Of a stretch of DNA of 13,625 nt, positions 1-13,625 are shown piece by piece. Position 1 is the stretch's first letter. The number at the start of each line of letters is the position of its first letter. A model generated the notes under the pieces. That model was not told the DNA's origin. It made no database searches and was given only the letters and a program-made list of their open reading frames with translations. Source of the DNA: a virus (Duplodnaviria > Heunggongvirae > Uroviricota > Caudoviricetes); the IMG/VR virus record IMGVR_UViG_2681813234_000008, positions 1-13,625 of that record; one strand, written 5' to 3'. The position numbers and the translations under genes are program-made.

Positions 1-74
1 TCCGTAACGCCTCTGCCACGCGCGTAACGTGACAGGGATTAAAGGTAAACCAATTGATTTTGCAAGTTTTTATT

Positions 75-1361
75 TTACCCCGCTTTCTTATGGGGCATGC
101 ATGGGACACTTTCAGATAGTCTTCTGTTAAGAAGTTCTATCTGTTCGTGATTGTTGTCTTTCATCCATGCTCCGTAAACATTGAATACCATTTGTGCGTT
201 TGTGTGGCCCATCTGGCTTGCGATAAAACTAGGATTAGCTCCTGCGGCAAGTGACCAGCATGCATAGGTATGCCTGGATTGATACGATTTTCTGTGTCTC
301 AGACCTGCGCGTTTTAAGATACTTGTCCATGACTCCCTGATGGAGTCAACCTTATAGTGCGGTCCGGAAAACTGCCGCTGTTTTATTACCTGAGGACTAA
401 AAACAAAAGTGCATTTATGCACAGTACTTCTCCCATATTCCCTCTGCTTTACCTCTACAGAATGCTGTTTTCCAAGCATGGTCATTTCCGCTTGGCTTTT
501 AAGAGCATCAATAGCTGGTTGAACTAGATGAATCGTTCTTCCGGTACCAGCATCAGTTTTTGGTGGAGTGAATTCGCCTAGTTTTGTATAATTCCGGCGG
601 ATGGTTATAGTCCTCGCTTTAAGGTCTATATCTTCCCAGGCCAGTGATACCAGCTCCCCGTGACGAATACCTGTGTATACAGCGATAATCCACAGGTTTT
701 TTGTTTGTTGATGACGGCAAGCCTCAATAAAACGAATAAATTCGTCACGGGTGAGGGGATCTGGTTCTATCCTGGACTTTTTTAATGGTGTCAGACCGTT
801 AAATGGATTTCCTGATGTATAACCATTATCTGTTGCAAATTGAAACATTCCAGCTATGGTTGTCATATAGTAGTTTACTGTGACCACTGAGCGTCCTTTT
901 ATGGAAGAAATTTTTCCGTTAGAAAGCTTTTGATAACCGGTCAACAGATCTCTCCTTACGAAAAGCAAATCCTCTTTTGTTACAGATGAAACCAGTCTTT
1001 TTTCACCTAACATTGGCAACATGTTTTTAATTACTGACTGGTAACGGTTAAGTGCATTTGCACAAATCTCTATTTTCTTCAGTTCAAGCCATCTTTCCGA
1101 AAGTGCTTTAATGGTTATCTCTCTTTTCCCCAGACCAAAGTGTTTCAGGTTAGGGGACTCAGGGAACTGTGCTGCATAGTCGAAACTCCCCATTCTTATT
1201 GCAAAACAAACGGAAGTGCGGAGGTCACCTGCGATTTTCCGGTTTTTGGCGGTGTCAGGAACACCGAGGTTTTCTCTGACACGTTTGCCGTTATAGTGAA
1301 ACCATATGCGGAGTGATCCGCCATGATTTTCAACGCCTGTTGGGTATGATGTATTACTCAT
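75..1361 (-). CDS. int: Tyrosine recombinase (phage integrase)
   Basis: 428-aa ORF with C-terminal catalytic signature (RHTYA, GHTNAQMVFNVYGAW with putative catalytic Tyr) and an N-terminal arm-type region (GSLRIWFHYNGKRVRE). Strong SD (GGAGG) 5 nt upstream of the ATG at 1361. Confidence 0.85.
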   Translation of the reverse strand: MSNTSYPTGVENHGGSLRIWFHYNGKRVRENLGVPDTAKNRKIAGDLRTSVCFAIRMGSFDYAAQFPESPNLKHFGLGKREITIKALSERWLELKKIEICANALNRYQSVIKNMLPMLGEKRLVSSVTKEDLLFVRRDLLTGYQKLSNGKISSIKGRSVVTVNYYMTTIAGMFQFATDNGYTSGNPFNGLTPLKKSRIEPDPLTRDEFIRFIEACRHQQTKNLWIIAVYTGIRHGELVSLAWEDIDLKARTITIRRNYTKLGEFTPPKTDAGTGRTIHLVQPAIDALKSQAEMTMLGKQHSVEVKQREYGRSTVHKCTFVFSPQVIKQRQFSGPHYKVDSIRESWTSILKRAGLRHRKSYQSRHTYACWSLAAGANPSFIASQMGHTNAQMVFNVYGAWMKDNNHEQIELLNRRLSESVPCMPHKKAG

Positions 1362-1394
1362 TAAACCTCCCAGACGTCCAGGAGCATTAACAGG

Positions 1395-1649
1395 TTAACC
1401 GGAACTTGCATTTTTAACACCTGGTTGTTTCTGATTTTCGATCCAGCGCATAATTTCCTCTATGTTGTATACGCATTCACTGTTGCTCTTCGGAATTCCA
1501 TCGACAGCGTAATGTCGATATTCTTTCCCCTGTAGCCATGATTTTTTCCTGGCTCGCTCAATGGTGCCTGGTTTTAGCCCTGTCGAAGCAATGAGGGTGC
1601 TTTCTGTACACCATTTACTTGGTGTTATTTGATAGATGATTGTCTGCAT
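1395..1649 (-). CDS. xis: Excisionase-like small DNA-binding protein
   Basis: 84-aa basic ORF 33 nt upstream of int on the same strand, with SD GAGGT. Position and size fit Xis/AlpA-type directionality factors; family assignment by eye only. Confidence 0.55.
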   Translation of the reverse strand: MQTIIYQITPSKWCTESTLIASTGLKPGTIERARKKSWLQGKEYRHYAVDGIPKSNSECVYNIEEIMRWIENQKQPGVKNASSG

Positions 1650-1656
1650 GTCAACC

Positions 1657-1803
1657 TCATAAAACTTTCAGCCCACGGCAGTGGCACCACACCTCAAACA
1701 TTCGTTTCACAACTTCACGGCAGTAGAAACCGTCAACATCTCGCGTCAGGTCATAACGATTGCCGTAACGCTGGCGTACCCATAGCTCAAACGCTTTATT
1801 CAT
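1657..1803 (-). CDS. Small hypothetical protein (48 aa), not in the ORF track
   Basis: Manual translation gives MNKAFELWVRQRYGNRYDLTRDVDGFYCREVVKRMFEVWCHCRGLKVL. ATG sits 3 nt after the stop of the upstream gene with an AAGGAAG SD about 6 nt upstream; it fills the gap between the 80-aa gene and xis. Confidence 0.3.
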   Translation of the reverse strand: MNKAFELWVRQRYGNRYDLTRDVDGFYCREVVKRMFEVWCHCRGLKVL

Positions 1804-1806
1804 TCG

Positions 1807-2049
1807 CTACTTCCTTTTCATGGCTCGTAATTTTTTCAGATGAGCTTCCTGCTCTGTTTCTGCCAGAATTTGTCGGTATTCCTGGTGATCGATCCGTTCA
1901 AACGATTCATTAAAATCGTTCATTTTTACCGATTGTGTTCGCCCATCCATTCTTCTGTACAACACGGTGTTATTTATGCAGCGAATAATTTTTACTGGGT
2001 AACCGGCACTGTCGGTATACAGTTGTCCCTGATTAATCAAAGCAAACAT
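1807..2049 (-). CDS. Hypothetical protein (80 aa)
   Basis: Track ORF 1807..2172, trimmed to the internal ATG at 2049, which has an AGGAG SD about 6 nt upstream. No recognisable domain. Confidence 0.5.
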   Translation of the reverse strand: MFALINQGQLYTDSAGYPVKIIRCINNTVLYRRMDGRTQSVKMNDFNESFERIDHQEYRQILAETEQEAHLKKLRAMKRK

Positions 2050-2080
2050 TTTTTCTCCTGCTCTCTGAATAGTGAGAACT

Positions 2081-2452
2081 TCAGAGCCGTATGTTTGTAG
2101 CGGGTTCAATACTGATAATTTCTGCTGAGATAAGCATCCCGGCAAGCCAGAGTTCTCTGGACAGGTCTTCATCCTGACATATCAGTTCGCCAATATTAAT
2201 GGTGGCCATGATATCTGTTTCCCCTGTGCGCTCATCCTCGACTTCTTCATAAGGCAGCGTTGCGTACAGGCTTTCAATAGCGCAACTGATAACATCCAGT
2301 CCGGTCAGATTGCCGCCGACAGTAACTTCGAATGTTTCGCGGTATTCCCATAGTCCGAAAGTTAATCGAACGGTTTGTTTTGCCATGCGTCCGCATGACG
2401 TCAGATTCGGGTCATAGTTCATTATTTGCGGTTGGGTATTATGGGTGTTCAT
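2081..2452 (-). CDS. Hypothetical acidic protein (123 aa)
   Basis: Track ORF with an AAGGGA SD-like sequence upstream, same strand as the neighbouring operon. No recognisable domain. Confidence 0.5.
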   Translation of the reverse strand: MNTHNTQPQIMNYDPNLTSCGRMAKQTVRLTFGLWEYRETFEVTVGGNLTGLDVISCAIESLYATLPYEEVEDERTGETDIMATINIGELICQDEDLSRELWLAGMLISAEIISIEPATNIRL

Positions 2453-2492
2453 CTGCTTTTCCCTTAGCCCGGCGGCCTGCCGGGCATATAAG

Positions 2493-3320
2493 TTATTTAA
2501 CCTGGATAAATGGCGTATTGGCGCCGCTGGTCATGTATTGCGGCAGTGTGCCGTTCCATTTATTGATGGCTTCCAGTTCCATAACTCCAGGGTTCTGGCG
2601 CAGAGCTTCACCGCGTAAACGAATAGCATCGGCTTCGGCCTGGGCTTTTGTGCGAATCGCATCAGCCTGTCCGGCAGCTTCCGCGCGCAGCATGTTGGCT
2701 TCCGCTTCGCGCTGTTTTACTTCCTGCTCGCGTTGCAGGGTTTTCTGGTTTGCCGTGACTTTGGCATTAATGCTGTCGATAACGGTTGGTGGGTACTCCG
2801 GTTTACCTACATATGAGAGGCTCACTACCTGAATACCGATGGGTGTCATTTCTGCCTGAATGTCTTTAAGAGCAGCATCCAGCAGTTCAGACTTGCCGCC
2901 GTCGATAAATTTGTCGGTGGTCATTTTGCTGGCCAGTCGGTTGAGTGCGTCGGCGATCTTCTGGCGCAGGTCGGTGTCGGTAATGTCATCCACGCCTTTG
3001 CGGTAAGTCTGAAACACCGTGGTAACTTTGGATGGATCAACTTTGTAGGCCACGCCAATGTGATAGCCGATGGTTGTACCGTCACTCATCTGGAAACTGA
3101 ACGGTTCATCGTAGGTCTTCATTTGTTTGAAGGTGGGGAAGATATAAACTTCAGTATTCCAGCCAGTCCAGTAGCGACCAACACCGACCACCTCACCGAC
3201 GCCTTTGTCGTCGCCCAGTTTATTTACCTTGATGCCAACATTACCTGGTTCAACGCGATCGCAACCGACAAGGCCAATAGTCGGCAGAACAATGGCTAAA
3301 GCAAAAATAATTTTTTTCAT
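2493..3320 (-). CDS. SPFH/Band-7 (HflK/HflC-like) lipoprotein, predicted inner-membrane anchored
   Basis: N-terminal signal peptide with lipobox LVGC followed by Asp at +2 (inner-membrane retention rule). Core resembles the HflK/HflC pattern (VEPGNVGIKVNKLG ... IGIQVVSLSYVGKPEYPPTV), followed by an Ala/Gln/Glu-rich coiled-coil tail. SD AAGGA; ATGA overlap with the upstream small gene. Confidence 0.7.
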   Translation of the reverse strand: MKKIIFALAIVLPTIGLVGCDRVEPGNVGIKVNKLGDDKGVGEVVGVGRYWTGWNTEVYIFPTFKQMKTYDEPFSFQMSDGTTIGYHIGVAYKVDPSKVTTVFQTYRKGVDDITDTDLRQKIADALNRLASKMTTDKFIDGGKSELLDAALKDIQAEMTPIGIQVVSLSYVGKPEYPPTVIDSINAKVTANQKTLQREQEVKQREAEANMLRAEAAGQADAIRTKAQAEADAIRLRGEALRQNPGVMELEAINKWNGTLPQYMTSGANTPFIQVK

Positions 3321-3505
3321 CTTTTATCCTTAGTGAAAGAAAGACCCTTGTAAATGGCATAAATGCAGGGCGGGGTCAGAAACGCCAGTGCAAAGCCAGA
3401 AATAACTGCTATCGTATCCTTCATGGATATAAGGAACGGAACGAGTAATCCGTAAATGCATGCGATAATTGCCAGTAAAATTACTATTGTGAAATACAGT
3501 CTCAT
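3317..3505 (-). CDS. Small two-helix membrane protein (62 aa), coupled to the SPFH gene
   Basis: Two hydrophobic stretches (YFTIVILLAIIACIYGLLVPFLI and IAVISGFALAFLTPPCIYAIY). Its stop overlaps the SPFH start as ATGA. Weak SD. Confidence 0.55.
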   Translation of the reverse strand: MRLYFTIVILLAIIACIYGLLVPFLISMKDTIAVISGFALAFLTPPCIYAIYKGLSFTKDKR

Positions 3506-3528
3506 TGGTCTGTGGTATCCCGATATTT

Positions 3529-3636
3529 TTAACCGACTGACAGCGCAATAAAGAGAATAATGATTTCAGTTAGTGTCAGTACTGTGGCAAGGATTAAAAT
3601 CAGTTTTACTCTGTTTAATTCACGGTTGCTTTTCAT
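3529..3636 (-). CDS. Putative 35-aa single-helix membrane peptide, not in the ORF track
   Basis: Manual translation gives MKSNRELNRVKLILILATVLTLTEIIILFIALSVG: charged N-terminus then one hydrophobic helix. It lies 46 nt after the 193-aa gene stop and 24 nt before the 62-aa membrane gene. No clear SD. Confidence 0.25.
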   Translation of the reverse strand: MKSNRELNRVKLILILATVLTLTEIIILFIALSVG

Positions 3637-3681
3637 ATAAACGGTTAGTAAAAGATGGAAGAATTATATTCTTCTTAATAT

Positions 3682-4263
3682 TTAATGTGTCACTGGCGCT
3701 TCTGACATACCATGAGTATTCAGGTCGTTAATCATTTCATCCAGAAGGAGTTCAAGCCCTTCGCGCCCCATAGCAGAGAGAATGAAACCATTATCAGGAT
3801 CTGCGATGAGCATTTTTTGATAGAGAAACAGAACTCGCCCGATGCCTTCAGTTTCGCCATATTTTTCAATAAATCCCCATTCGACATGGTTTTGCAGGGC
3901 AATGCGAAGTGGTCCTGGGTATATACTTATGCAACCATGTTTCCCCTTGTAAATAACTGCGCGATCTGTCGTCCCGTTATCGTTAGGGATATCAATAGTG
4001 CCGTTCTTGTCTTCCTCTTCACTGATAAACTTCATCACATACAGCCAGCGCCACTGAGCAACCTTCAGATCGACTGAAAATCTTCCCAGCAATCCGGCAT
4101 CATCAGCTTCGGCAAGACATTGCATGATTCTTAAACCGTGCCAGTATGGATTATCGAATTCGCCATCATTAAGCCGCTGTACGGCCTCAATATAATCAAT
4201 GGTTTTATTACCAATTTTTATGCCATGTGGCGTTACTTCTGGTCGGAACTCTGAATGATTCAT
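3682..4263 (-). CDS. Hypothetical protein (193 aa), distal gene of a coupled pair
   Basis: Track ORF 3682..4338, trimmed to the ATG at 4263 (MNHSEFRPEV...), which overlaps the upstream gene stop as ATGA. Very AT-rich; no recognisable domain. Confidence 0.6.
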   Translation of the reverse strand: MNHSEFRPEVTPHGIKIGNKTIDYIEAVQRLNDGEFDNPYWHGLRIMQCLAEADDAGLLGRFSVDLKVAQWRWLYVMKFISEEEDKNGTIDIPNDNGTTDRAVIYKGKHGCISIYPGPLRIALQNHVEWGFIEKYGETEGIGRVLFLYQKMLIADPDNGFILSAMGREGLELLLDEMINDLNTHGMSEAPVTH

Positions 4264-4448
4264 AATGTTTGCTCCTTTGCTGGTGGAATAATCGTGTAGC
4301 CAGCTCTTTTTGCCATCCACAGAAATGTATCCATGCAACCAACGAATTCATTATCCAACAGATGTTTTGAGTAAATTACTTCACCATTTTCAATAGTTAG
4401 CAACACTCTTACTTTTTTATGTGTTATGTTTTGTTGTTTTTCTTTCAT
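4260..4448 (-). CDS. Hypothetical small protein (62 aa), proximal gene of a coupled pair
   Basis: Track ORF with GGGAGA SD about 8 nt upstream of the ATG; AT-rich codon usage. Stop overlaps the start of the 193-aa gene. Confidence 0.5.
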   Translation of the reverse strand: MKEKQQNITHKKVRVLLTIENGEVIYSKHLLDNEFVGCMDTFLWMAKRAGYTIIPPAKEQTL

Positions 4449-4644
4449 TTATTTATCTCCCATATGCTTTGCGCAAATACAGGTTGGCTATATGAAGATA
4501 AGAATCTCCATGTTGTGCAATGAGGCAGGCAGTTTTATACGATGCCTTATGTTTCAGGAAAGTCATAACATAATCTCCTGCGAATAAAGGTTGCAACAAT
4601 CCCCGGCGATAAAACCGTAATAAACATTCAGGGAATATTTATTG

Positions 4645-5010
4645 TTATTGCGCTAATTCTTTTTCGGCAGCAGATTTTGCATATTCACATGCAAAATTCA
4701 GAATTTCGCTGCCAAGTGTTTTTGTTTCGTGATTACTGGACATATGTAATACCTGTGTTGCATGCAATAAATGATAAACATTTACCGCAAATGAATCAGG
4801 CTCCAGACAAATGCCTTCATAATCATCTTGTTGTGAGGTTGTTTCTGTCATTGCTCCTGAAGTGCATGCGAGCCTGTTTTTGACAATTCTCTTTCCTCTA
4901 ATCACTATATCGGCAACATCTATTGCCTTTACAACCTCCGGGAGAAGGTCCGGGTTTGTATAATCAAAGTCATTAACATGGAGAACAGTTATGTTTTCGA
5001 ACTTTTTCAT
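4645..5010 (-). CDS. Hypothetical protein (121 aa)
   Basis: Track ORF with GAGGAA SD upstream of the ATG at 5010. It lies downstream of an HTH gene on the repressor strand. No recognisable domain. Confidence 0.55.
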   Translation of the reverse strand: MKKFENITVLHVNDFDYTNPDLLPEVVKAIDVADIVIRGKRIVKNRLACTSGAMTETTSQQDDYEGICLEPDSFAVNVYHLLHATQVLHMSSNHETKTLGSEILNFACEYAKSAAEKELAQ

Positions 5011-5138
5011 GGCTTCCTCAGCTGACTTATATGTTCTGCTATATAGCGAGTCTCAGAAGTGTTTTCATATTGAGACTGTTTCCTCAATGATTGATAAAAA
5101 TGTTCGCATGTACCTTGAGGGGCGAAGCGGCGATTATG

Positions 5139-5657
5139 TCACCATTGGTATTGGTTCTTCCGTAGAAGAGCTTCGCGAGATAAGGAGCAAACTTGTTGAG
5201 ATGCGTCATGGTGTTGCTGCTCCTCACTTTTTGGTTGCTCCGGAGGAGTAACCTCACCAGTTAACAGCCACATCGGATCGCAGCCAAGAATATTTGCCAG
5301 TGGGATAAGCATACTGATAGTTGGTTCATACTTTCCGCTCTCCCACTGGATGATAATTTCTTCATCGAGATCGAGCAGCCTGGCGAGTTCGGCGGTTGTT
5401 AAGCCGCAAGCTTCGCGTTGAGTGCGAAGGCGGGAACTAATAGTCACCATAGCAAGGCGACGGCAAGATTTAGTGCGCTCTTGCCTTCTTTGTGAAAAAT
5501 CTTCTTGTGCAAGAGAAGATGCCAGTTCAGCTGAAATTAGAAGTAATGAATATGAAACATCTCGCTCTTTCTCGGTACCTGAAGACAACAAGCAGGCTGC
5601 GTTAAGGGATGCAGAAAGCTTGTTGATGTCATCTATAGCGTCAATAAAATCGATCAT
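5139..5657 (-). CDS. XRE-family helix-turn-helix protein (172 aa) with extra N-terminal region
   Basis: Central HTH_3-like segment (GLTTAELARLLDLDEEIIIQWESGKYEPTISMLIPLANILGCDPMWLLTGE). GGAG lies upstream of the ATG at 5657; the alternative start at M70 (5450) lacks an SD. Confidence 0.6.
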   Translation of the reverse strand: MIDFIDAIDDINKLSASLNAACLLSSGTEKERDVSYSLLLISAELASSLAQEDFSQRRQERTKSCRRLAMVTISSRLRTQREACGLTTAELARLLDLDEEIIIQWESGKYEPTISMLIPLANILGCDPMWLLTGEVTPPEQPKSEEQQHHDASQQVCSLSREALLRKNQYQW

Positions 5658-5697
5658 TTCTCAAAGCTCCAATAATGCGCTGTGAGGCAATGATTCA

Positions 5698-5728
5698 TCA
5701 ATTATAATTGATAGTCAAGTATGATTTA
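5698..5728. promoter_or_regulatory. Operator-like 14-bp perfect palindrome TCAATTATAATTGA (5698-5711) plus adjacent half-site TCAAGTA (5715-5721)
   Basis: Palindrome read directly from the sequence. It sits between the repressor stop and the start of the 172-aa HTH gene and matches the site family in the repressor/cro intergenic region. Confidence 0.45.
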
Positions 5729-6211
5729 GTCTTTTTGATTGAGTTTTTGCGTGATTAGCAAGATGTTTTTTGAGTGTTCTTCCAGAAGATTTTTTGCAAA
5801 ATCCAACACCTTTACCCTCTCTTTTGTGGGTAAATTCGCAAATATTTCAAATAAATAGCTTGTATCCTCAATGATTGTTGGATCTATAGATTCAATAATA
5901 CCTCGTATCAGTTTGTTGCTCATTGAATCAAAAAGAGTTTCTCCATTCTCCCGGGTAAGTGTGTACTTAGGTTTTTCTGTGTTTCCATTTAAAAGCCACT
6001 GTACGTCGCACTGTAAGAGTTCTGATAATTTCAATAGCTTATCGCTAGTTATGCTTGTCTTTCCTTTCTCCCACAAAGATACAGCAGCCATTGATACCCC
6101 CATTGCTTGTGCCAGCTTTAATTGACTTAAACCAAGTTCTTTTCTGCGTGACAGAATCCTGTGCCCCATTGAGAGTGGGGAAGACTGACATGACTTTAGT
6201 TTTGTATCCAT
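5726..6211 (-). CDS. Prophage repressor, XRE-family HTH, no recognisable S24 peptidase domain (CI analog)
   Basis: N-terminal HTH (LGLSQLKLAQAMGVSMAAVSLWEKGKTSITSDKLLKLSELLQCDVQWLLNG). Transcribed divergently from the Cro-like gene. Track ORF trimmed to the ATG at 6211, which has a GAGGG SD. The C-terminal 90 aa show no Ser/Lys autopeptidase motif. Confidence 0.7.
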   Translation of the reverse strand: MDTKLKSCQSSPLSMGHRILSRRKELGLSQLKLAQAMGVSMAAVSLWEKGKTSITSDKLLKLSELLQCDVQWLLNGNTEKPKYTLTRENGETLFDSMSNKLIRGIIESIDPTIIEDTSYLFEIFANLPTKERVKVLDFAKNLLEEHSKNILLITQKLNQKD

Positions 6212-6291
6212 ATTGCCCTCAAGTATACTTGATAGTAAGATTGTGTTGTAATTCCTGTTGCTAAGCTTAATCAATTAATGTTGAGGTCTCA
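6212..6291. promoter_or_regulatory. Divergent immunity promoter/operator region with two 14-bp sites, TCAAGTATACTTGA (6219-6232) and TCAATTAATGTTGA (6271-6284)
   Basis: The first site is a perfect palindrome and the second is a 12/14 match to the 5698 palindrome. Each abuts the SD of the gene on its side. -10-like hexamers (TATACT, TAAGAT) are present, but promoters are not mapped. Confidence 0.5.
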
Positions 6292-6531
6292 ATGATAAAG
6301 ATTAGTGCAATTAAGTTTTATGGTTCGCAAAGGGCGATTGCTCAATCACTGGGGATTAGCGAGCAAGCTGTTTCTCAATGGCCAGAACTCATTCCTAAAG
6401 GTGCAGCTCTGGAGCTTGAGAAACTCACTGATGGCGCTTTGAAGTGCGATCTGAACCTGTACAAGAACCGCTCGCGCAAAAACAAGCGTGAATTGCACCC
6501 AAGCTTAGCGCACACGGGGGAGGAGAAGTGA
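6292..6531 (+). CDS. Cro/YdaS-like small DNA-binding regulator
   Basis: 79-aa ORF with the YdaS/Cro-type motif GSQRAIAQSLGISEQAVSQW ... PKGAALELEKLTDGALKCD. Divergent from the repressor; GAGG SD. Confidence 0.7.
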   Translation: MIKISAIKFYGSQRAIAQSLGISEQAVSQWPELIPKGAALELEKLTDGALKCDLNLYKNRSRKNKRELHPSLAHTGEEK

Positions 6532-6851
6532 TGGGCGTGTACGTTGATCGTAGAGAAATACTTCTTGATTGCGTGCAGATAGACATGCCCTCGGCTTATA
6601 GCTCAGCAGATGCTGAGTGGATTAAGCAGCAGTTACTTAGCCTGACACTCACGGCACGACAAAAAGCCATCCAGCGTTATGGCGTTGTGTATCAGGAGGC
6701 ATTTGAGGCCGAACCCATTTCGTACCGTAAGGAGAACCGGGCAAGGCATGAAGCAAACACAAGGCTTCGCCTGTTTGTGAGAAATCAGGGCAGAGCTTTA
6801 CAGGGGTATGCCGCCGAACCTCCCCTGGCTGGAACGCAATCGCGATCCTGA
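6531..6851 (+). CDS. Hypothetical protein (106 aa) in the CII position, Arg-rich C-terminus
   Basis: ATG overlaps the cro stop (TGATG) with a GGAGGAG SD upstream. No recognisable HTH, so a CII-like role is a positional guess only. Confidence 0.5.
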   Translation: MGVYVDRREILLDCVQIDMPSAYSSADAEWIKQQLLSLTLTARQKAIQRYGVVYQEAFEAEPISYRKENRARHEANTRLRLFVRNQGRALQGYAAEPPLAGTQSRS

Positions 6852-6935
6852 TTGTTTCGGGTTTGAAGGTACCCGAACAGAAGCAGGCTTAAAGGTGCCT
6901 GTTCAGGTTGGCAACCAACTGACCCAATTCCTCAT

Positions 6936-6960
6936 GCGTACTAGGTAAGTAGTACGTTTT
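6936..6960 (+). terminator. Weak intrinsic-terminator-like hairpin
   Basis: Stem CGTACTA / TAGTACG with loop GGTAAG, followed by TTTT. AT-rich stem, so stability is modest. Lies about 85 nt after the 106-aa gene. Confidence 0.3.
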
Positions 6961-6963
6961 TAT

Positions 6964-7017
6964 GGGGAAGAGGGAAAGGGGGGAGGGGGGGGATTGGGTG
7001 CAGGGGTAGGAATAGGG
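6964..7017. repeat. G-rich polypurine tract with runs G4, G3, G6, G8, G3, G4, G3
   Basis: Read directly: GGGGAAGAGGGAAAGGGGGGAGGGGGGGGATTGGGTGCAGGGGTAGGAATAGGG. The first 30 nt are pure purine. It sits inside a 428-bp intergenic region. Confidence 0.9.
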
Positions 7018-7279
7018 ACTTTTCCAACAGGAGAGAGCCATTGGTTAAGTAGATCACTGTCTTAAGGGCGCAATTTAAAAAAACGCCTGTATCAGCAAGA
7101 TAGTACAAGGCGCTCAGGCGCTGAGAAACGAAAAAGGGTTCTTCCTGGAAGAGTGTTTTTCAGGGGAACTGAATCTGAAGGGAGGCTGGCAGCCTTTGGG
7201 GAGGCCACCAGCCATGTGAGGGGGAATCCATGAAAACCACATCACAAAATTATTATCTCATCAGCACTGGAGCAAAACA

Positions 7280-8932
7280 ATGGAGCTGACGATCACGCCG
7301 AATTTTGCACAGGAACGAGCGTTAAACATGTTGCGTCGTGACTGGAAGGCAAATGACACCTTCATGGTGTATTCGCCAACTGGTAGCGGTAAAACCGGTT
7401 TGGCCGCTTTCATCGTTGCAGGGTTTGTCAGCCGTGGTATGCGCGTTCTGTTTTGTGCACCGTACACTATCCTGATTGGTCAGACGGCTAATCGCTTCGT
7501 GGAGTACGGGTTACCGGAGGATGAAATCGGTTATATCTGGGCGGATCACCCGAACTACGATCCGGACCGGAAAATTCAGATTGCCAGCGCCGACACGCTT
7601 ATTCGTCGTGTTTTTCCTGAAAATATTGATCTGCTGATTATCGACGAAGCACACCTGCGTAAAAAACGCATCCTGAAGGATATCGAACGTCTGCGCGGCA
7701 AAGGCGTAAAGGTGATTGGCCTGTCGGGTACTCCGTTTTCCCCGTTCCTGGGCAAATACTATGACCGACTAATTAAACCGACCACCATCGGCGAGTTAAT
7801 CCAGCGTGGCGATCTGAGTAAATACGAATTTTATGCGCCAACAAAGCCGGATCTGAAAGGCGTAAAAACCAAGTCTTCACTTGAGTACGGCAACGATTAT
7901 AACGAAGCTCAACTGGCTGAAATCATGTGCGGCTCTACGCTGGTGGGCGACATCGTACAGAACTGGCTGGAGAATGGCCGGGATCTGCCGACAATCGCGT
8001 TCTGCGTCAACGTAGCCCATGCTAATTTTCTGACAATCCAGTTTAACCAGGCTGGCATTAACGCTGAGGTCATGACCGCCAACACGCCAGTGGATGAGCG
8101 TCAGACCATCATTCACCGCTTTGAAACTGGTGCAACGAAAATCATCGTTAGTGTGGGCGTTCTGGTGGCTGGCTTCGATAGTGACGTTCGTTGCATCATC
8201 TACGCCAGGCCAACAAAAAGTGAAATTCGCTGGCTGCAGGCGATTGGGCGCGGCCTGCGCACAGCGCCGGGTAAAGAATCTTGTCTCATATTCGATCACA
8301 GTGGCACCGTACACCGCCTCGGTTACCCGGATTCTATCGAGTATGACGATCTCCCCGGTAAGTCTGATGGCATGGAGGAAAGTGCGCGCCGTGCAGCTGA
8401 GGAGCGGGCCGAAAAACTCCCCCATGAATGTTCTCAATGCCACTACATGAAACCCGCTGGTGTCTACGTCTGCCCGAAATGCGGGCATAAGCCGTTGGGT
8501 GGTGAGGATGTCGATACCGATACCGGGCGCAAACTTAAAAAGCTGGGTAAAAATCAGCATCTATCGACAAAGGCAGAGAAACAGGCTTGGTGGAGCCAGA
8601 TCAAATTTTATCAGCGCCAGCGCGTATCGCAGGGGAAAAAGCCCGTTAGTGATGGCTGGTGCGCTCACATTTTCCGGGAGAAGTTCGGCGAATGGCCGGA
8701 TAACCTGAGTGATTTCCCGATGGAAATTACCCCGGAGGTAAGCAACTACATCAGATACAAACTCATCAGGTTTGCGAAAGGGCAAAAACGCCCCCCTCAA
8801 CCACAGACAGAATCTCATCATGCAGGCGCATTGCCGCTAGGTTGTGCCGCAATTTACGAGCTCCCTGAGAACTGCCCGACTAAGGCAATTATCAACGCCA
8901 AACAGCAACTTCAGAAAAATGTAGTGGTGTGA
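7280..8932 (+). CDS. Superfamily-2 DEAD/DEAH-type helicase with C-terminal zinc ribbon (replication module)
   Basis: Walker A SPTGSGKTG, motif II LIIDEAH, motif III LSGTP, motif VI QAIGRGLR, and a C-terminal CSQCHYMKPAGVYVCPKCGH. GGAG SD upstream of the ATG. Confidence 0.85.
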   Translation: MELTITPNFAQERALNMLRRDWKANDTFMVYSPTGSGKTGLAAFIVAGFVSRGMRVLFCAPYTILIGQTANRFVEYGLPEDEIGYIWADHPNYDPDRKIQIASADTLIRRVFPENIDLLIIDEAHLRKKRILKDIERLRGKGVKVIGLSGTPFSPFLGKYYDRLIKPTTIGELIQRGDLSKYEFYAPTKPDLKGVKTKSSLEYGNDYNEAQLAEIMCGSTLVGDIVQNWLENGRDLPTIAFCVNVAHANFLTIQFNQAGINAEVMTANTPVDERQTIIHRFETGATKIIVSVGVLVAGFDSDVRCIIYARPTKSEIRWLQAIGRGLRTAPGKESCLIFDHSGTVHRLGYPDSIEYDDLPGKSDGMEESARRAAEERAEKLPHECSQCHYMKPAGVYVCPKCGHKPLGGEDVDTDTGRKLKKLGKNQHLSTKAEKQAWWSQIKFYQRQRVSQGKKPVSDGWCAHIFREKFGEWPDNLSDFPMEITPEVSNYIRYKLIRFAKGQKRPPQPQTESHHAGALPLGCAAIYELPENCPTKAIINAKQQLQKNVVV

Positions 8933-8937
8933 GTTTT

Positions 8938-9906
8938 ATGAAAACAGTAGATGCTGCGAAAGGCCGCTGGCCTGAAATTTTAGAGCATTTTGGTCTGCCA
9001 CCGATAACTGGAAAAAATCACTATAAAGGAGAATGCCCTGTATGCGGTGCGCGCGGAAAGTTGCGAATTGATGACCGTGACGGGCGTGGAACGTGGATTT
9101 GTACTTGCGGCAGCGGTGACGGTATGAAGCTTGTCACCCTGACACAGGGAAAACCATTCAATGAGGTTTGTAGGGAAATAGACCACCTGATCGGTAATGA
9201 TTTTCAGCGTGTAAAAATCCCGGTCAGCAGCAGCGCTACCAGCCTGCGTACAAAGGTTCTGAATAAGTTCGCGAAGCTGCAGCCGTTACGTGGCACTTCT
9301 GGTGCTGCGTATCTCAATGCGCGCGGCATTTTCAGTCTGCCGCTTGAAGCGATCCGTTTCAACGATAAGCAGCGCCATGCCGGGAGGGTGTATCAGTCGC
9401 TTTATTCCCTCGCCACCGATGATAAAGGGGAACTGTGCTATCTGCATCAGACATTACTCGATGGCCCCAAAAAAGCAGATATCGGTGCCAGTGCAAAGCG
9501 CCAAAAATCCCTGCAGGAAGATAACTATCTTGATCACGCCCGTTCAGTAGCGATCCGGATGTTCCCGGTAGCCAGCACACTTGGCATCGCCGAAGGCATC
9601 GAAACGGCTCTGTCAGCGCACCAGATTTACAACGTAAACACCTGGGCAACTATGACGGCTAACTTCATGAAGAAATTTCGTGTTCCGGCTGGCGTTAAGC
9701 ACCTGATTATTTTTGCTGACCGTGACGAAAACAGTGCCACCGGATTGGCAGCGGCCTATGAATGCGCTCATGCCAATCTGCTGGCAAAGAATGACCTGCA
9801 GCGCGTGAGCGTGTACTGGCCCGATCACGATGATTTTAACAACATGCTCATGAACGGCGATCAGGTTCGTGAGCTGGTTTTCTACAAGAAAAAGGCGACT
9901 GCGTAA
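8938..9906 (+). CDS. DNA primase, N-terminal zinc ribbon plus TOPRIM-like domain
   Basis: CPVCGARGKLRIDDRDGRGTWICTCG zinc-binding motif and an acidic TOPRIM-like motif LIIFADRDENSATG. Coupled to the helicase stop; the track start is a GTG at 8929, and the ATG at 8938 is preferred. Confidence 0.65.
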   Translation: MKTVDAAKGRWPEILEHFGLPPITGKNHYKGECPVCGARGKLRIDDRDGRGTWICTCGSGDGMKLVTLTQGKPFNEVCREIDHLIGNDFQRVKIPVSSSATSLRTKVLNKFAKLQPLRGTSGAAYLNARGIFSLPLEAIRFNDKQRHAGRVYQSLYSLATDDKGELCYLHQTLLDGPKKADIGASAKRQKSLQEDNYLDHARSVAIRMFPVASTLGIAEGIETALSAHQIYNVNTWATMTANFMKKFRVPAGVKHLIIFADRDENSATGLAAAYECAHANLLAKNDLQRVSVYWPDHDDFNNMLMNGDQVRELVFYKKKATA

Positions 9907-10766
9907 TGCGTACAGATAACAACGAACATAAAGCACTATTCACCATCCCGACGGCAGCGCATAGCTCCGCCCTGGCAAACATCAAGCCTCTGCCTGAGCA
10001 ACAGAGAATCACCGGGCATAAACAGACCGATGCCTATCTGTGGGTACTGGAGGTCATCCGCCTGAACGAACCGGCACATCTGGACGCTGCAGAAGCAGCG
10101 CTGGAGAAAATTAAAATCTCTCCAAAAGAGGCCGAGGAGCGGTATTCCCGTTATCTGCTGGCGAATGGCTGTGATCCTTTCCAGGCAGCTTTCGGTACTA
10201 TCGGTATGGATAATCCAGCGAGAGCCATTGAAAATGCGCGTAAGAACATCAAGAAAGCTGCTGATGTTCGCGCTACGTTCGGCAGCTATGAGGCTGCGAT
10301 GGAGGACGTAGAGGCCGAGCGAGTGATCAGGTCTTCCCAAAAATTTACTGATGATTACCTGTGGGGCTGGACCGCAGACGAAAAGAGAGACGGAAGCATT
10401 AACGGCAGTCGTATGAATGAAATTGATGATCAGCGTCGCGCATATGTTGATGGCTATCGTGACGTTCTGCCAGAGCCTCATACACTGTCAGATGTTGTTC
10501 GTGAATTTGTTTACTGGGACTGGCTTTACAACGTTCGCCGTACTGCTGGCCAGGAACTCGGCTACGACTTTGGTTATTCCGAACACCATGAGTCTGTATA
10601 CGACCGTGAGCGATACCTGGAAAAATTACTGGCAACCATCAAACCGGTGACACGCGCTGAAGCTGTGGAGGTGTGCCGCTGGTTTCTGGCAAGCGGAAAG
10701 GACGAATACATGGAAGACAACGGGGCGGCAGTCATTCTTAATCTGGTTGGAGAGTGCGAACAATGA
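9906..10766 (+). CDS. Hypothetical protein (286 aa)
   Basis: ATG overlaps the primase stop (TAATG). Codon usage matches the replication module. No recognisable domain. Confidence 0.6.
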   Translation: MRTDNNEHKALFTIPTAAHSSALANIKPLPEQQRITGHKQTDAYLWVLEVIRLNEPAHLDAAEAALEKIKISPKEAEERYSRYLLANGCDPFQAAFGTIGMDNPARAIENARKNIKKAADVRATFGSYEAAMEDVEAERVIRSSQKFTDDYLWGWTADEKRDGSINGSRMNEIDDQRRAYVDGYRDVLPEPHTLSDVVREFVYWDWLYNVRRTAGQELGYDFGYSEHHESVYDRERYLEKLLATIKPVTRAEAVEVCRWFLASGKDEYMEDNGAAVILNLVGECEQ

Positions 10767-10906
10767 GACTTGAGGCATCGCTAAAACATTTCAACTTTCA
10801 GGGGAGCGCACAGGACTCTTCCAATGCAGCAGCCACAGCCGCGCAGATACAGCAACAAACGAACTGACAGCAGTAAGATGGAGCGTTTCTTTTGAACAAC
10901 CAGACA

Positions 10907-11149: not shown

Positions 11150-11520
11150 TGCGCTTAGAGTGTGTTTTACCTTACCCACCGACGGTGAACACCTACTGGC
11201 GTCGTCGTGGCAGCACATATTTTGTATCAAAAGCAGGGGAGCGTTATCGCCGGGATGTGGCGCTTATTGTTCGCCAGCAGCGACTGAAATTAAACCTGTC
11301 CGGAAGGCTGGCAATAAAAATTATTGCAGAGCCGCCGGATAAGCGCCGTCGTGACCTGGACAATATTCTGAAAGCACCACTGGATGCGCTGACGCATGCC
11401 GGACTACTTATAGACGACGAGCAGTTTGATGAAATCAATATTGTGCGCGGACTGCCTGTTCCTGGTGGGCGGTTGGGCGTGAAGATTTACGAAATTACAG
11501 GTGATAACGATGGTGCGTGA
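11149..11520 (+). CDS. rusA: Holliday-junction resolvase RusA family
   Basis: Matches the RusA pattern ([40 protein letters not shown]), including the acidic catalytic residues. Typical Nin-region position. Confidence 0.8.
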
Positions 11521-11896
11521 TATTCAGCAGGTTATGGAGCGGTGGGGATCATGGGCTGCGAACAATCACGAAGATGTGTCATGGGCGTCAATCGCTGCTG
11601 GTTTTAAAGGATTAATCCCGCCGAAAGTGAAATCACGCCCTCAGTGTTCTGATGATGATGCAATGATAATTTGTGGCTGTATGGCCCGGTTGAACAAGAA
11701 AAATCAGGATTTGCACGATTTGTTGGTGGATTATTACGTAGGTGGAATGACTTTTATGGGGTTGGCACGAAAGCATGGGTGTTCGGATACCTGTATTGGC
11801 AAGCGCCTGCAGAAAGCGGAAGGGGTTATTGATGGCATGTTGATGATGCTTGATATCCGACTAGAGATGGACAGATACGTAGAACGAATCATGTAG
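11510..11896 (+). CDS. Late-gene antiterminator Q (phage 82/DLP12 QuuD-like family)
   Basis: Motifs [21 protein letters not shown] and Cys cluster [16 protein letters not shown]. Immediately followed by a promoter-plus-terminator unit. Start placed at the ATG at 11510, which has an AGGTGA SD. Confidence 0.7.
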
Positions 11897-11900
11897 GAGC

Positions 11901-11930
11901 TTGACCAGACACATTGTCCGGGGCTATATT
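11901..11930 (+). promoter_or_regulatory. Candidate late promoter pR' (-35 TTGACC, 18-bp spacer, -10 TATATT)
   Basis: Near-consensus sigma-70 hexamers 5 nt after the Q stop, followed by short hairpins and an intrinsic terminator about 75 nt downstream. Confidence 0.45.
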
Positions 11931-11990
11931 CCTCACGCGCCAGCAAAATCTGGCGTCGGGATTGGCGTCCCGGATGAAAAAGGCGACAAC

Positions 11991-12012
11991 AGACGCGCCA
12001 GCGTCTTTTTTG
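11991..12012 (+). terminator. Intrinsic terminator (tR'-like)
   Basis: Stem AGACGC / GCGTCT with loop GCCA, followed by TTTTTT. Confidence 0.5.
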
Positions 12013-12169
12013 TTGTCGTTTGCACTGTCACATCTCAATGGTGGGCTGTGTGGGGGCGGAGCGATCCGCGCCGGTTCCTTTTTCCCGGTTACGCCAACCC
12101 TGCACAGTTCACCACCATACTGATTGGCGTCAGCAGTGGTGATGATTCACATAGAAAAAGGATCATCCT

Positions 12170-12658
12170 ATGGCTATTCAAATCTCAGTTGAAACTCTTT
12201 CCCCGATCACCCATAACCAAATCCCTGTCATTACTACCGAGCTTTTGGCACAACTTTATGGCACCGAAACTAATAACATCAAAGTGAACTATACACGCAA
12301 TGCCGAGCGTTTTGTTTGTGGGAAACACTACTTCAAATTGGAAGGGGCTGAGTTGCGGGAATTTAAGAACAAGGTTACTCAAAGTAACTTAGTTGCACCG
12401 CGTACAAAGCACCTCATCCTCTGGACAGAACGCGGAGCAGCCCGTCACGCCAAAATGCTGGAAACCGATCAGGCGTGGGAAGTGTTCGAAAAACTGGAAG
12501 ACTGTTATTTCAGCCAAAAACAACCACCAGCAGCACAAAACACCCCAACCCAAAATGATGGATGCGCATTACTGATCCACTTCGATAAACACGGTCAGGT
12601 CGACTTCACGGAAAAACTACCCGCCGATGCGATGGTATGCACTCTGGAACGGTTTTAA
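12170..12658 (+). CDS. ORF6N-domain protein (antirepressor-like N-terminal domain family)
   Basis: Pattern LAQLYGTETNNIKVNYTRNAERFVCGKHYFKLEGAELREFKN ... LILWTERGAARHAKMLETDQAW is typical of ORF6N/KilA-N-like phage proteins. AGGA SD 7 nt upstream. Confidence 0.65.
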   Translation: MAIQISVETLSPITHNQIPVITTELLAQLYGTETNNIKVNYTRNAERFVCGKHYFKLEGAELREFKNKVTQSNLVAPRTKHLILWTERGAARHAKMLETDQAWEVFEKLEDCYFSQKQPPAAQNTPTQNDGCALLIHFDKHGQVDFTEKLPADAMVCTLERF

Positions 12659-12734
12659 AAATTTTCCCCGAACGCTTTACGATCGTAAAAAGTTGAATAT
12701 CCTGTTAAGAGTGGTTACTACGCCAAACAGCTTA

Positions 12735-12760
12735 AACCCGCCACTGAGCGGGTTTTTTTA
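12735..12760 (+). terminator. Intrinsic terminator
   Basis: AACCCGC / GCGGGTT stem with short loop, followed by TTTTTTT; lies 77 nt after the ORF6N gene stop. Confidence 0.6.
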
Positions 12761-12881
12761 TGCCTGAAAAACGGTACAGGACGTTAAACGCGCTGGTGGT
12801 TGCGAATACTGGTCTTTCGGCTTGTATTTTTGTAAATCGATATATACTTATCTTGTGACCAGTAATGTCAGGGCAATTGAT

Positions 12882-13625
12882 ATGAATGAAGCTTGTTCTG
12901 TTGTTTTTGTTCATTCCCCGTTTGTTGTGCTCTTTGAAGGAAAAGAGCTCTCTCTGGAAAGTGGTAGTGCACTTCTTGTCAGGGGGGGAGCTGGATCGTT
13001 ATTGCCCTTTTCGGAATGTTTTCGGCGAATAAGTCTCAGTGAATCGACAATTATCCGTTACCTGTTGTGTGGAGACGAAAAACAGGATGTAGTTTTAGTC
13101 CGGCAAATACCACGATATCTTTGCGTGAGTTTTCCCAAGGCAGAATTGATGGGCATCCTGATTGATTATCTTTGTGAGGAAAAGATTCATACGGACAATT
13201 TAGCGGAAATGCTTTCCTTTTCGTGTCTGGCGTTTTTCTCATCAGAGAAAATGTTTTCGTCGTTTCTGACCGCGTGTATTGGCAATATTAGTGACAGGCT
13301 TAGTGCATTGTTTCGTACGGACATTGCAGCAAACTGGACTCTGAGAGATGTGTCTTCGCGGTTATGTATCAGTGAAAGTTTGTTAAAAAAAAGACTGAAA
13401 GAAGAAGGCACCTGTTTCAGTGAGTTGTTGCTTACAGAGAGAATGAGAATGGCAGCAATGCTGTTGAATCAATCTCGTTGCGCCATCAACAGAATCGCTG
13501 CTCAGTGTGGTTATAATTTTACATCTTATTTTATCAGCGTATTCAGGAGTTATTTTGGTGTTACACCGGCAGGTTACAGGATGGCTGCATTCAATGAGAT
13601 GAGTTTAAGTGTTACTCAAGAATAA
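12882..13625 (+). CDS. AraC/XylS-family transcriptional regulator, AppY/YdeO/GadX-like
   Basis: C-terminal AraC HTH (ESLLKKRLKEEGTCFSELLLTERMRMAAMLL ... CGYNFTSYFISVFRSYFGVTPAGY). N-terminus MNEACSVVFV resembles AppY as recalled from memory. Track start is a TTG at 12822; the ATG at 12882 is preferred. AT-rich gene. Confidence 0.8.
   Translation: MNEACSVVFVHSPFVVLFEGKELSLESGSALLVRGGAGSLLPFSECFRRISLSESTIIRYLLCGDEKQDVVLVRQIPRYLCVSFPKAELMGILIDYLCEEKIHTDNLAEMLSFSCLAFFSSEKMFSSFLTACIGNISDRLSALFRTDIAANWTLRDVSSRLCISESLLKKRLKEEGTCFSELLLTERMRMAAMLLNQSRCAINRIAAQCGYNFTSYFISVFRSYFGVTPAGYRMAAFNEMSLSVTQE

Follow-up and report, generated by a model that had tools for sequence, protein, structure and literature searches.

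Antisense control by C4-type RNAs, the IsrK cascade of the prophage Gifsy-1 and the late promoter of the Q933W family of antiterminators are all established biology. In the immI regions of phages P1 and P7, which comprise c4, icd and ant and were described by Citron and Schuster, heteroimmunity is set by two short covarying sequences. In P1, RNase P cuts C4 from its precursor, and a small upstream open reading frame, icd, couples translation to ant.

In Gifsy-1, IsrK as a separate RNA turns on translation of the antirepressor from a read-through transcript (Hershko-Shalev et al. 2016, PMC4825925). There, Q expression goes up in response to the antirepressor, separately supplied IsrK raises Q mRNA and leads to 8-fold more read-through transcript, and the pairs IsrK G28-C162 and G31-C159 have been tested by mutation (PMC4825925). 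For the late promoters of lambdoid phages, two reference points are pertinent here. In the Sakai prophage Sp5, the PR' transcript measures 258 nt from its dRNA-seq start to its Term-seq end (Sy et al. 2020, PMC7547250), and the Q21 binding element at PR' of phage 21 is a TGAGCA direct repeat between the -35 and -10 elements (structures 6P18 and 6JNX).

Here, we analyse a viral DNA stretch of 13,625 nucleotides (hereafter, the window) in which a lambdoid Q gene is immediately followed by a strong promoter and a terminator. An earlier note, made from the sequence alone, had taken this promoter and terminator for the Q-dependent late unit, pR'/tR'. We conclude that region 11897-12169 is very probably something else, namely, the control region of an antirepressor cassette of the P1 immI type, located between Q and the late promoter that belongs to Q. 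The features of this part of the locus are as follows.

11510-11896, + strand: Q antiterminator gene of the Q21/Q933W family (Pfam PF06530, E 5.6e-52), with a complete core
11901-11930, + strand: PisrK, a sigma-70 promoter with TTGACC (11901-11906), an 18-nt spacer and TATATT (11925-11930); predicted start G11937
11917-11924, + strand: conserved half of the PisrK spacer, TCCGGGGC, adjoining the -10 element
11924-11976, + strand: c4-a1b1 target motif (Rfam RF03163, 52.2 bits, above gathering)
11937-12011, + strand: IsrK small RNA (Rfam RF01394, 79.4 bits against a gathering threshold of 50, model positions 1-77)
11962-11968, + strand: b1 mimic UUGGCGU, in the loop of the second IsrK hairpin
11976-11983, + strand: a1 mimic GAAAAAGG, within IsrK
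11991-12006 with a T run to 12011, + strand: terminator-like hairpin AGACGC-GCCA-GCGTCT, found by the terminator scan
12034-12119, + strand: C4-type antisense RNA, the STnc1160/orf45' equivalent (Rfam RF01695, 74 bits against a gathering threshold of 45)
12075-12084, + strand: C4 loop a', UUCCUUUUUC, complementary to a2
12091-12097, + strand: single-stranded C4 tail b', ACGCCAA, complementary to UUGGCGU of b1 and b2
12124-12130, + strand: b2 target UUGGCGU, in the antirepressor mRNA
12154-12162, + strand: a2 target GAAAAAGGA, which holds the Shine-Dalgarno sequence, 7 nt before the ATG at 12170
12170-12658, + strand: ORF6N antirepressor gene, an AnrP/Ant homologue (Pfam PF10543 (ORF6N), E 1.2e-21)

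PisrK is the top promoter-like site of the window, with 10 of 12 hexamer positions matched in the promoter scan. This match alone is little proof because the window shows no general enrichment of such sites, the scan giving 12 where shuffles predict 20.7. We nevertheless consider PisrK and its terminator to be more than a chance occurrence because the pattern TTGAC-N11-TCCGGGGCTATATT is rare, with a single occurrence in the window and none in 200 shuffles, because the -35 element, spacing and -10 element are kept in 36 distinct related sequences, Q-adjacent and nin-region copies alike, and because G11937, the predicted start, is the exact 5' end of the Rfam isrK match. The 3' end of that match is the U run of the terminator. 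Both elements reported in the earlier note, the TTGACC-18-TATATT promoter and the intrinsic terminator about 75 nt further on, are thus borne out, the T run ending 75 nt from the predicted start. The adjacency to Q holds as well, with the distance corrected from 5 to 4 nt (the Q stop codon is TAG 11894-11896).

By its sequence, 11901-12011 is PisrK-IsrK, the 5' part of a cassette that consists of a C4 antisense RNA and an antirepressor gene. IsrK is predicted to fold into two 5' hairpins followed by the terminator (-28.6 kcal/mol, z -2.1), and the C4 RNA, at -43.5 kcal/mol (z -4.4, equalled by none of 200 shuffles), into the expected long stem enclosing two hairpins. Read directly from the sequence, a' UCCUUUUUC is complementary to a2 GAAAAAGGA, and their pairing covers the Shine-Dalgarno sequence of the antirepressor gene.

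The pairing was assessed in 36 distinct cassettes from relatives, which were aligned and in which the 8 b1-b' and 8 b'-b2 pairs were counted. All of these pairs (100%) are standard Watson-Crick pairs in 35 of the cassettes. Compensatory changes on both sides were found at 4 of the 8 pairs, in 49 cells, a result reached by none of 500 shuffles; when, as a control, the partner was slid by 1-3 columns, pairing fell to 13-50%. At least six b types and at least seven a types recur as matched triplets that have been recombined with each other. Predicted duplex energies point in the same direction, cognate against non-cognate combinations of C4 and target giving -31.5 versus -24.2 and -25.5 versus -19.2 kcal/mol; we prefer the column-wise pair counts as evidence because the energy matrix is noisy, with GC-rich stems contributing to it. 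The Gifsy-1 pairs tested by mutation, G28-C162 and G31-C159, correspond to b1-b' in the window. Given the covarying triplets and this match, the most likely mechanism is that C4 blocks the ribosome-binding site of the antirepressor gene and that IsrK, by mimicking this site, competes for C4.

The C4 RNA overlaps an open reading frame, the orf45 equivalent, which spans 12038-12142 and has 34 codons here. Conserved coding in this frame is unsupported, its frame and length (14-51 codons) varying among the cassettes.

The protein encoded downstream of C4 matches the PHROG anti-repressor family phrog_2379 (E 2.6e-78, profile positions 1-163 of 187). In alignment with full-length alleles, the allele in the window is 24 residues short at the C terminus; the gene is annotated in RefSeq as an incomplete pseudogene, and this shortened allele may be inactive. 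The Q protein shares 80% identity with Q933 of Stx phages (over 125 amino acids) and with QuuD of DLP12, and is distantly related to Q21 as represented by PDB structures 6p18 and 6jnx (E 7e-7). It does not have the 19-residue Q933 tail, whose coding sequence overlaps PR' in Stx phages.

Further downstream, the window contains three more features.

12676-12713, + strand: PR' of the Q933W/QuuD family, with -35 TTTACG (12676-12681), -10 TATCCT (12698-12703) and an inferred start at A12710
12734-12759, + strand: hairpin in the PR' leader followed by U7, a candidate tR' and the best terminator-like site in the window (8 pairs, 5 of them GC)
12882-13625, + strand: gene for an AraC-family (YdeO/GadX-like) regulator (Pfam HTH_18/HTH_AraC)

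This second promoter lies about 770-780 nt beyond PisrK, after the antirepressor gene. Its hexamers are weak, matching 8 of 12 positions and falling under the threshold of the promoter scan. It nonetheless carries, with 0 mismatches, the invariant PR' block of the family, TTTACG-WW-CGTAAAA...TAT..TG.TAAGAGTG, which was found in none of 200 shuffles. In the Stx phage PA28, TTTACG-16-TATCAT is followed by GATAAGAGTGGTTAC, a hairpin and a U run, the whole overlapping the 3' end of Q933, and the unit 12676-12759 is a clear homologue of this PA28 promoter and hairpin. The hairpin itself is conserved across the Q family, with changes in the loop. In Sp5, the distance between the PR' start predicted from the block and the end of the U run of tR' is exactly 258 nt, the length of the mapped transcript; since the mapped 3' end is at that distance and not at the proximal hairpin, 12734-12759 may not be the main tR'. 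After the PR' start, the -10-like element reads TACTAC in the window and is devoid of the final T of TACATT in Stx phages; this candidate pause hexamer is variable (TACATT, TACTAC, TACTTC), with no conservation beyond Escherichia. An Rfam Trp_leader match that overlies the leader hairpin (12688-12761; 25.9 bits against 41, E 0.11) was rejected as chance.

The distribution of the two units across related loci separates them. Species-representative genomes gave 8 Q loci, and a scan of viral contigs was far richer. Among 92 loci of the Q family, a strict pattern for the PR' block, TTTACGWWCGTAAAA...TAAGAGTG, has exactly one copy in 86; in each of these the copy follows Q, at -12 to +3014 nt relative to the stop codon, and never lies on the reverse strand. 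The six loci without a match to the pattern comprise three with at most 1.3 kb of sequence after Q and three with 1.3-1.9 kb. PisrK abuts Q in 41 of the 92, and 39 of these 41 carry the PR' block after the antirepressor gene; one of the two without a detected block (L021) extends only 762 nt downstream of Q. The alignment of the block spans five genera, namely, Escherichia, Photorhabdus, Providencia, Symbiopectobacterium and a Martelella record, and in DLP12 the block is found after the nmpC insertion, just before essD. In the window, its sole copy is at 12676, and there is none in 11901-12011.

The cassette, conversely, is found with other neighbours. In about 20 loci, including the nin regions of Stx phages, PisrK, the RNAs and the antirepressor gene lie 2.8-4.1 kb upstream of Q, and these nin-region copies of PisrK have the same -35 element, 18-nt spacer and -10 element (TTGAC, TCCGGGGC beside the -10, TATATT). 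Because Stx phages carry the cassette about 3 kb upstream of Q, we take it to travel with the antirepressor and not with Q. Furthermore, the PisrK core follows two unrelated Q families, Q933-type in the window and Q82-type in Gifsy-1. A comparison of the PisrK spacer with the family-conserved block ATCGTAAAAA showed no similarity, and the direct repeat of the Q21 type (two copies of TGAGCA), sought in the PisrK spacer, is absent from it and from the 12676 promoter as well. The occurrence of the cassette elsewhere, the homology of the downstream unit and the conservation of the block agree in linking PisrK to the antirepressor and the 12676 promoter to Q. From these sequence comparisons, we infer that the predicted Q-cognate late promoter of this prophage is 12676-12713, not PisrK. 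On this reading, the cassette was inserted after the Q core and before PR', in the place of the 19-residue tail of Q933.

These observations bear directly on the reading of the earlier note, in which PisrK and the IsrK terminator would be the Q-dependent late promoter and tR', and IsrK a short terminated late transcript akin to lambda 6S RNA or StxS. The layout speaks for it: the strongest promoter match in the window lies right after Q, with a terminator at the expected distance, and the -10-like sequence CAAAAT at +8 to +13 of the PisrK transcript, which has the key A and T of a pause element, could cause a sigma-dependent pause. Moreover, IsrK of Gifsy-1 has been described as the product of an antitermination-regulated promoter (PMC7547250), and deletion of PisrK in Gifsy-1 abolished spontaneous phage production (PMC4825925). 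However, Stx phages, in which PR' has been mapped to another site, carry this promoter core and RNA in identical form 3 kb upstream of Q, and the core stands behind Q933-type and Q82-type proteins, unrelated families that would need different binding sites. The CAAAAT sequence is a conserved loop of c4-a1b1 and IsrK RNAs, in copies far from Q too, and CAAAAUC is conserved in the Rfam c4-a1b1 consensus as well. The PisrK spacer is unlike the family block, and a separate, family-typical PR' is present downstream. As for the Gifsy-1 deletion, phage is still obtained when the antirepressor is supplied, and the assay is not clean; we give this result little weight because the strain carries other prophages. 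We therefore regard the assignment of PisrK as the late promoter as improbable.

A related possibility is that both units respond to Q, which would load at PR' (12676) and also modify the polymerase that started at PisrK, creating a positive loop in which Q leads to antirepressor and antirepressor to more Q. The cassette abuts the Q stop codon not only in the 41 loci with Q933/QuuD-type proteins but also in a Symbiopectobacterium locus (L012) and in Gifsy-1 with its Q82-type protein, and the 5' half of the PisrK spacer, AGACACATTG, is conserved among Q-adjacent copies, unlike in copies located in nin regions. In addition, the 8-fold increase of read-through RNA in Gifsy-1 lacks an explanation at the level of transcription, and an action of Q at the IsrK terminator could lie behind it. 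Yet, shared ancestry with the 3' end of the linked Q gene can account for the conserved half of the spacer, and the PisrK spacer bears no resemblance to that of the cognate PR'. On balance, we find a dual action of Q quite unlikely, and favour an antirepressor cassette whose own promoter is separate from that of the late genes.

What follows the cassette is consistent with an intact late operon. Within the window, as the earlier note stated, no lysis or morphogenesis gene comes after Q, and the only products encoded there are the ORF6N and AraC-type proteins; a tRNA search of the window found none. The description of these two genes as cargo fits the AraC-type gene; the first gene is instead the antirepressor that the cassette regulates. 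The AraC-type protein scores 146.9 bits against the NCBIfam YdeO model, under its cut-off of 348, and is a YdeO/GadX-like paralogue below the equivalog cut-offs. Its gene occupies the slot between PR' and the lysis genes that holds stx in Stx phages, and is absent from otherwise identical cassettes. In close relatives that do not have it, the cassette and PR' are followed by a methyltransferase gene, tRNAs and then the lysis genes.

The earlier note had offered two explanations for the missing late genes, namely, deletion of the late region, which would leave a cryptic prophage, or cargo inserted between Q and lysis genes located beyond the window. The former, in which unrelated cargo would come after Q, draws on the lack of any late gene inside the window, on the C-terminally shortened antirepressor gene with its RefSeq pseudogene label, and on the fact that the window is not found in full in any complete E. 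coli genome, no record covering more than 62% of it. However, the window simply ends at the AraC stop codon. The right-hand 2.2-2.8 kb are shared by 12 complete genomes and a set of viral contigs, and the sequence beyond AraC was read in one of these genomes and in 11 contigs. The genome (L001), the one fully annotated relative and identical to the window over 11400-13625, continues from 180 nt past the window end with late genes for two holins, a GH108 endolysin, terminase, portal, capsid and tail. A holin homologue is present downstream of the same AraC gene in all 11 viral contigs that carry it, about 180 nt after AraC in 9 of them, and endolysin or terminase genes are present as well where these contigs are long enough. 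In contig L013, about 680 nt separate the holin gene from an AraC match that is shortened. A deletion of the late region is accordingly highly improbable, and it is the second explanation that agrees with the relatives. In the relatives, the stretch from AraC to the holin gene holds two further hairpins that resemble terminators and nothing that resembles a promoter, which fits antiterminated late transcription from upstream.

Taken together, these data suggest the following scheme. In the lysogen, PisrK would be active, with most transcripts ending at the terminator to give the 75-nt IsrK, and read-through would yield a longer RNA that includes the C4-type sequence and the antirepressor message. 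C4 would pair, by its loop a' and its tail b', with a2 and b2, covering the ribosome-binding site, so that no antirepressor is made. The a1 and b1 copies in IsrK, on the same transcript or as a separate RNA, would compete for C4 and switch antirepressor translation on. The antirepressor would then inactivate the prophage repressor, allowing expression of the early operon including Q. Q is predicted to load at 12676-12713, not at PisrK, and the Q-loaded polymerase would pass the hairpin at 12734-12759, the AraC cargo gene and the two further terminators to reach the lysis and morphogenesis genes.

The location of the cassette, exactly between Q and PR' in two non-homologous Q systems, Q933-type here and Q82-type in Gifsy-1, where IsrJ would be the displaced PR' transcript, raises the question whether this position is functional and not accidental, which we consider doubtful. 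If it is functional, early transcription that proceeds past Q would enter isrK-C4-ant and flood C4 with copies of its target, and antirepressor would be released only after commitment, for instance, inducing co-resident prophages. Alternatively, within the same assumption, Q would act on polymerase that started at PisrK, closing a positive loop. The published origin of IsrK from an antitermination-regulated promoter would, in such a case, need revising.

For annotation, the implication is that a strong promoter and terminator right after a lambdoid Q gene are not necessarily PR' and tR'. A sizeable group of E. coli prophages, like Gifsy-1, has an IsrK/C4 switch in that position, with the late promoter displaced by 0.8-3 kb. 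This bears on the prediction of Q-controlled cargo, such as the AraC/YdeO-like regulator in the stx slot, and on the assignment of the prophage small RNAs IsrK, IsrJ and StxS to promoters.

Among the described systems, the lambda pR'-6S RNA-tR' region shares the general layout of a promoter after Q, a short terminated RNA and late genes. The TGAGCA repeat of phage 21 is found in neither promoter here, and PisrK is without any family-specific element. The PR'-StxS-tR' unit of the Stx phages 933W and Sp5, which is served by a related Q, resembles 12676-12759 in the -35 element, the spacer block, the start region and the proximal hairpin, and is not homologous to 11901-12011. In Stx phages, this unit overlaps the 3' end of Q and its terminator is mapped 258 nt downstream, whereas here it is displaced 780 nt by the cassette; after the proximal hairpin, the sequences of the window and the Stx phages are unrelated.

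The likeness to P1 and P7 immI lies in the placement of C4 between upstream a1/b1 and downstream a2/b2 sequences, the latter over a ribosome-binding site ahead of an antirepressor gene, and in a specificity that two short covarying sequences determine, the principle of P1/P7 heteroimmunity. Unlike in P1 and P7, a terminator here separates a1/b1 from C4 and releases the target copies as a separate small RNA, a2 covers the Shine-Dalgarno sequence of the antirepressor gene itself and not that of an upstream gene of the icd type, and the host phage is lambdoid.

The closest counterpart is the Gifsy-1 locus of Salmonella Typhimurium, antQ-isrK-orf45(STnc1160)-anrP-isrJ, which has the same parts in the same order. 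There, PisrK (TTGACA-18-TATATT) overlaps the Q stop codon and is followed by isrK, C4 and the antirepressor gene, and in both prophages the antirepressor gene is followed by another short unit of promoter and terminator, by cargo and, further on, by lysis genes, which for the window were read in relatives. The two differ in Q, annotated as Q82-like with 225 amino acids in Gifsy-1 and of the Q933W/QuuD type (PF06530) here, in the a and b specificity sequences and in the shortening of the antirepressor in the window. They differ also in the second unit, of the IsrJ type in Gifsy-1 and of the StxS type here. IsrJ is located after anrP and is preceded by TTGCAA-17-TATATT; because homologues of this unit overlap the 3' ends of Q-like genes in cassette-free Enterobacter and Klebsiella phages, IsrJ looks, from sequence comparison, like the displaced PR' transcript of the Gifsy-1 Q family. 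This supports the general picture and differs from the one in which IsrK comes from an antitermination-regulated promoter (PMC7547250). The locus in the window can be regarded as ordinary biology, given that all components belong to described families.

The spacer of PisrK, the promoter of the IsrK sRNA, divides into two dissimilar halves in an alignment of 36 distinct cassettes: the -10-proximal half, TCCGGGGC (window 11917-11924), is nearly invariant in every context, and the other half is variable. This pattern suggests that the invariant half is either a putative regulator binding site or part of the promoter itself; nothing resembling a LexA box was seen, either at window 11917-11924 or in the 36 aligned cassettes. 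Further downstream, the IsrK terminator is enclosed by another pairing:

Window 11982-12019: outer helix GGCGACAAC ... GUUGUCGUU, surrounding both the hairpin and the U run of the IsrK terminator

Only read-through RNA can form this helix, since the 3' arm of the helix lies past the IsrK U run. The helix covaries across cassette types (GCGAUAUGA/UCAUAUCGU, GUGCAUAA/UUAUGCGC); it could mark a site of processing or be a fold particular to read-through RNA.

The a-type and b-type specificity sequences, through which the C4-type RNA pairs with the target copies in IsrK and with antirepressor mRNA sites, are reassorted among the aligned cassettes: for example, b = GGCGU is combined with a = GAAAAAGG or a = GAAACC, and a = UCGAAAC is found with b = GGAAC or b = AGCAC. 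Such reassortment implies that E. coli prophages would possess many switch types that do not cross-react with one another. The antirepressor gene of the window (12170-12658) lacks the final 24 codons that its close relatives possess (the L004 protein has 186 aa), and an identical gene is labeled incomplete in RefSeq; the short allele is common to at least 11 viral contigs.

PR' units, or probable ones, of other prophages and phages are as follows:

L094 (Salmonella Gifsy-1) 33406-33520, minus strand, and L095 2501-2610: IsrJ unit with its own promoter; homologous units occur in phages
L003 (E. coli K-12 DLP12) 4696-4800: family PR' block and hairpin of QuuD
L002 9558-9586 and L093 769-796 (Stx2a phages): PR' leader GC hairpin and U7

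In Gifsy-1, the IsrJ sRNA, with its promoter TTGCAA-17-TATATT, lies directly 3' of the antirepressor gene anrP. Since phages of Enterobacter and Klebsiella have homologous units that overlap Q-like genes at their 3' end, IsrJ looks like the PR'-tR' transcript of the Gifsy-1 Q family, apparently pushed away by the isrK cassette. The DLP12 unit is located 2.9 kb away from quuD, flanked by the IS5-disrupted nmpC on one side and essD on the other. In the Stx phages, the GC hairpin plus U7 is conserved at about +24 to +52 of the leader; the study of the PR' transcript StxS mapped its 3' end at +258 and does not mention this hairpin (PMC7547250). The hairpin may act as a terminator, cause pausing or assist the loading of Q.

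The replication module and the region past PR' hold these genes:

Window 7280-8932: DEAD-box helicase gene
Window 8929-9906: primase gene
Window 12882-13625: AraC-family regulator gene

Whereas the window encodes this helicase and primase, L001, a genome sharing its right-hand end, has a DnaB/DnaC-type replication module (1-10800 compared). The whole window was not found in any complete E. coli genome of the collection searched; it is a mosaic without a representative among those searched. The AraC-family gene occupies the position between PR' and the lysis genes that is the stx slot of Stx phages and, being missing from otherwise identical Q-cassette-PR' segments, is a separate insertion. Its product most closely resembles YdeO and GadX, with scores under the NCBIfam cut-offs, and is reminiscent of the prophage regulators PsrA, PatE, and AppY.
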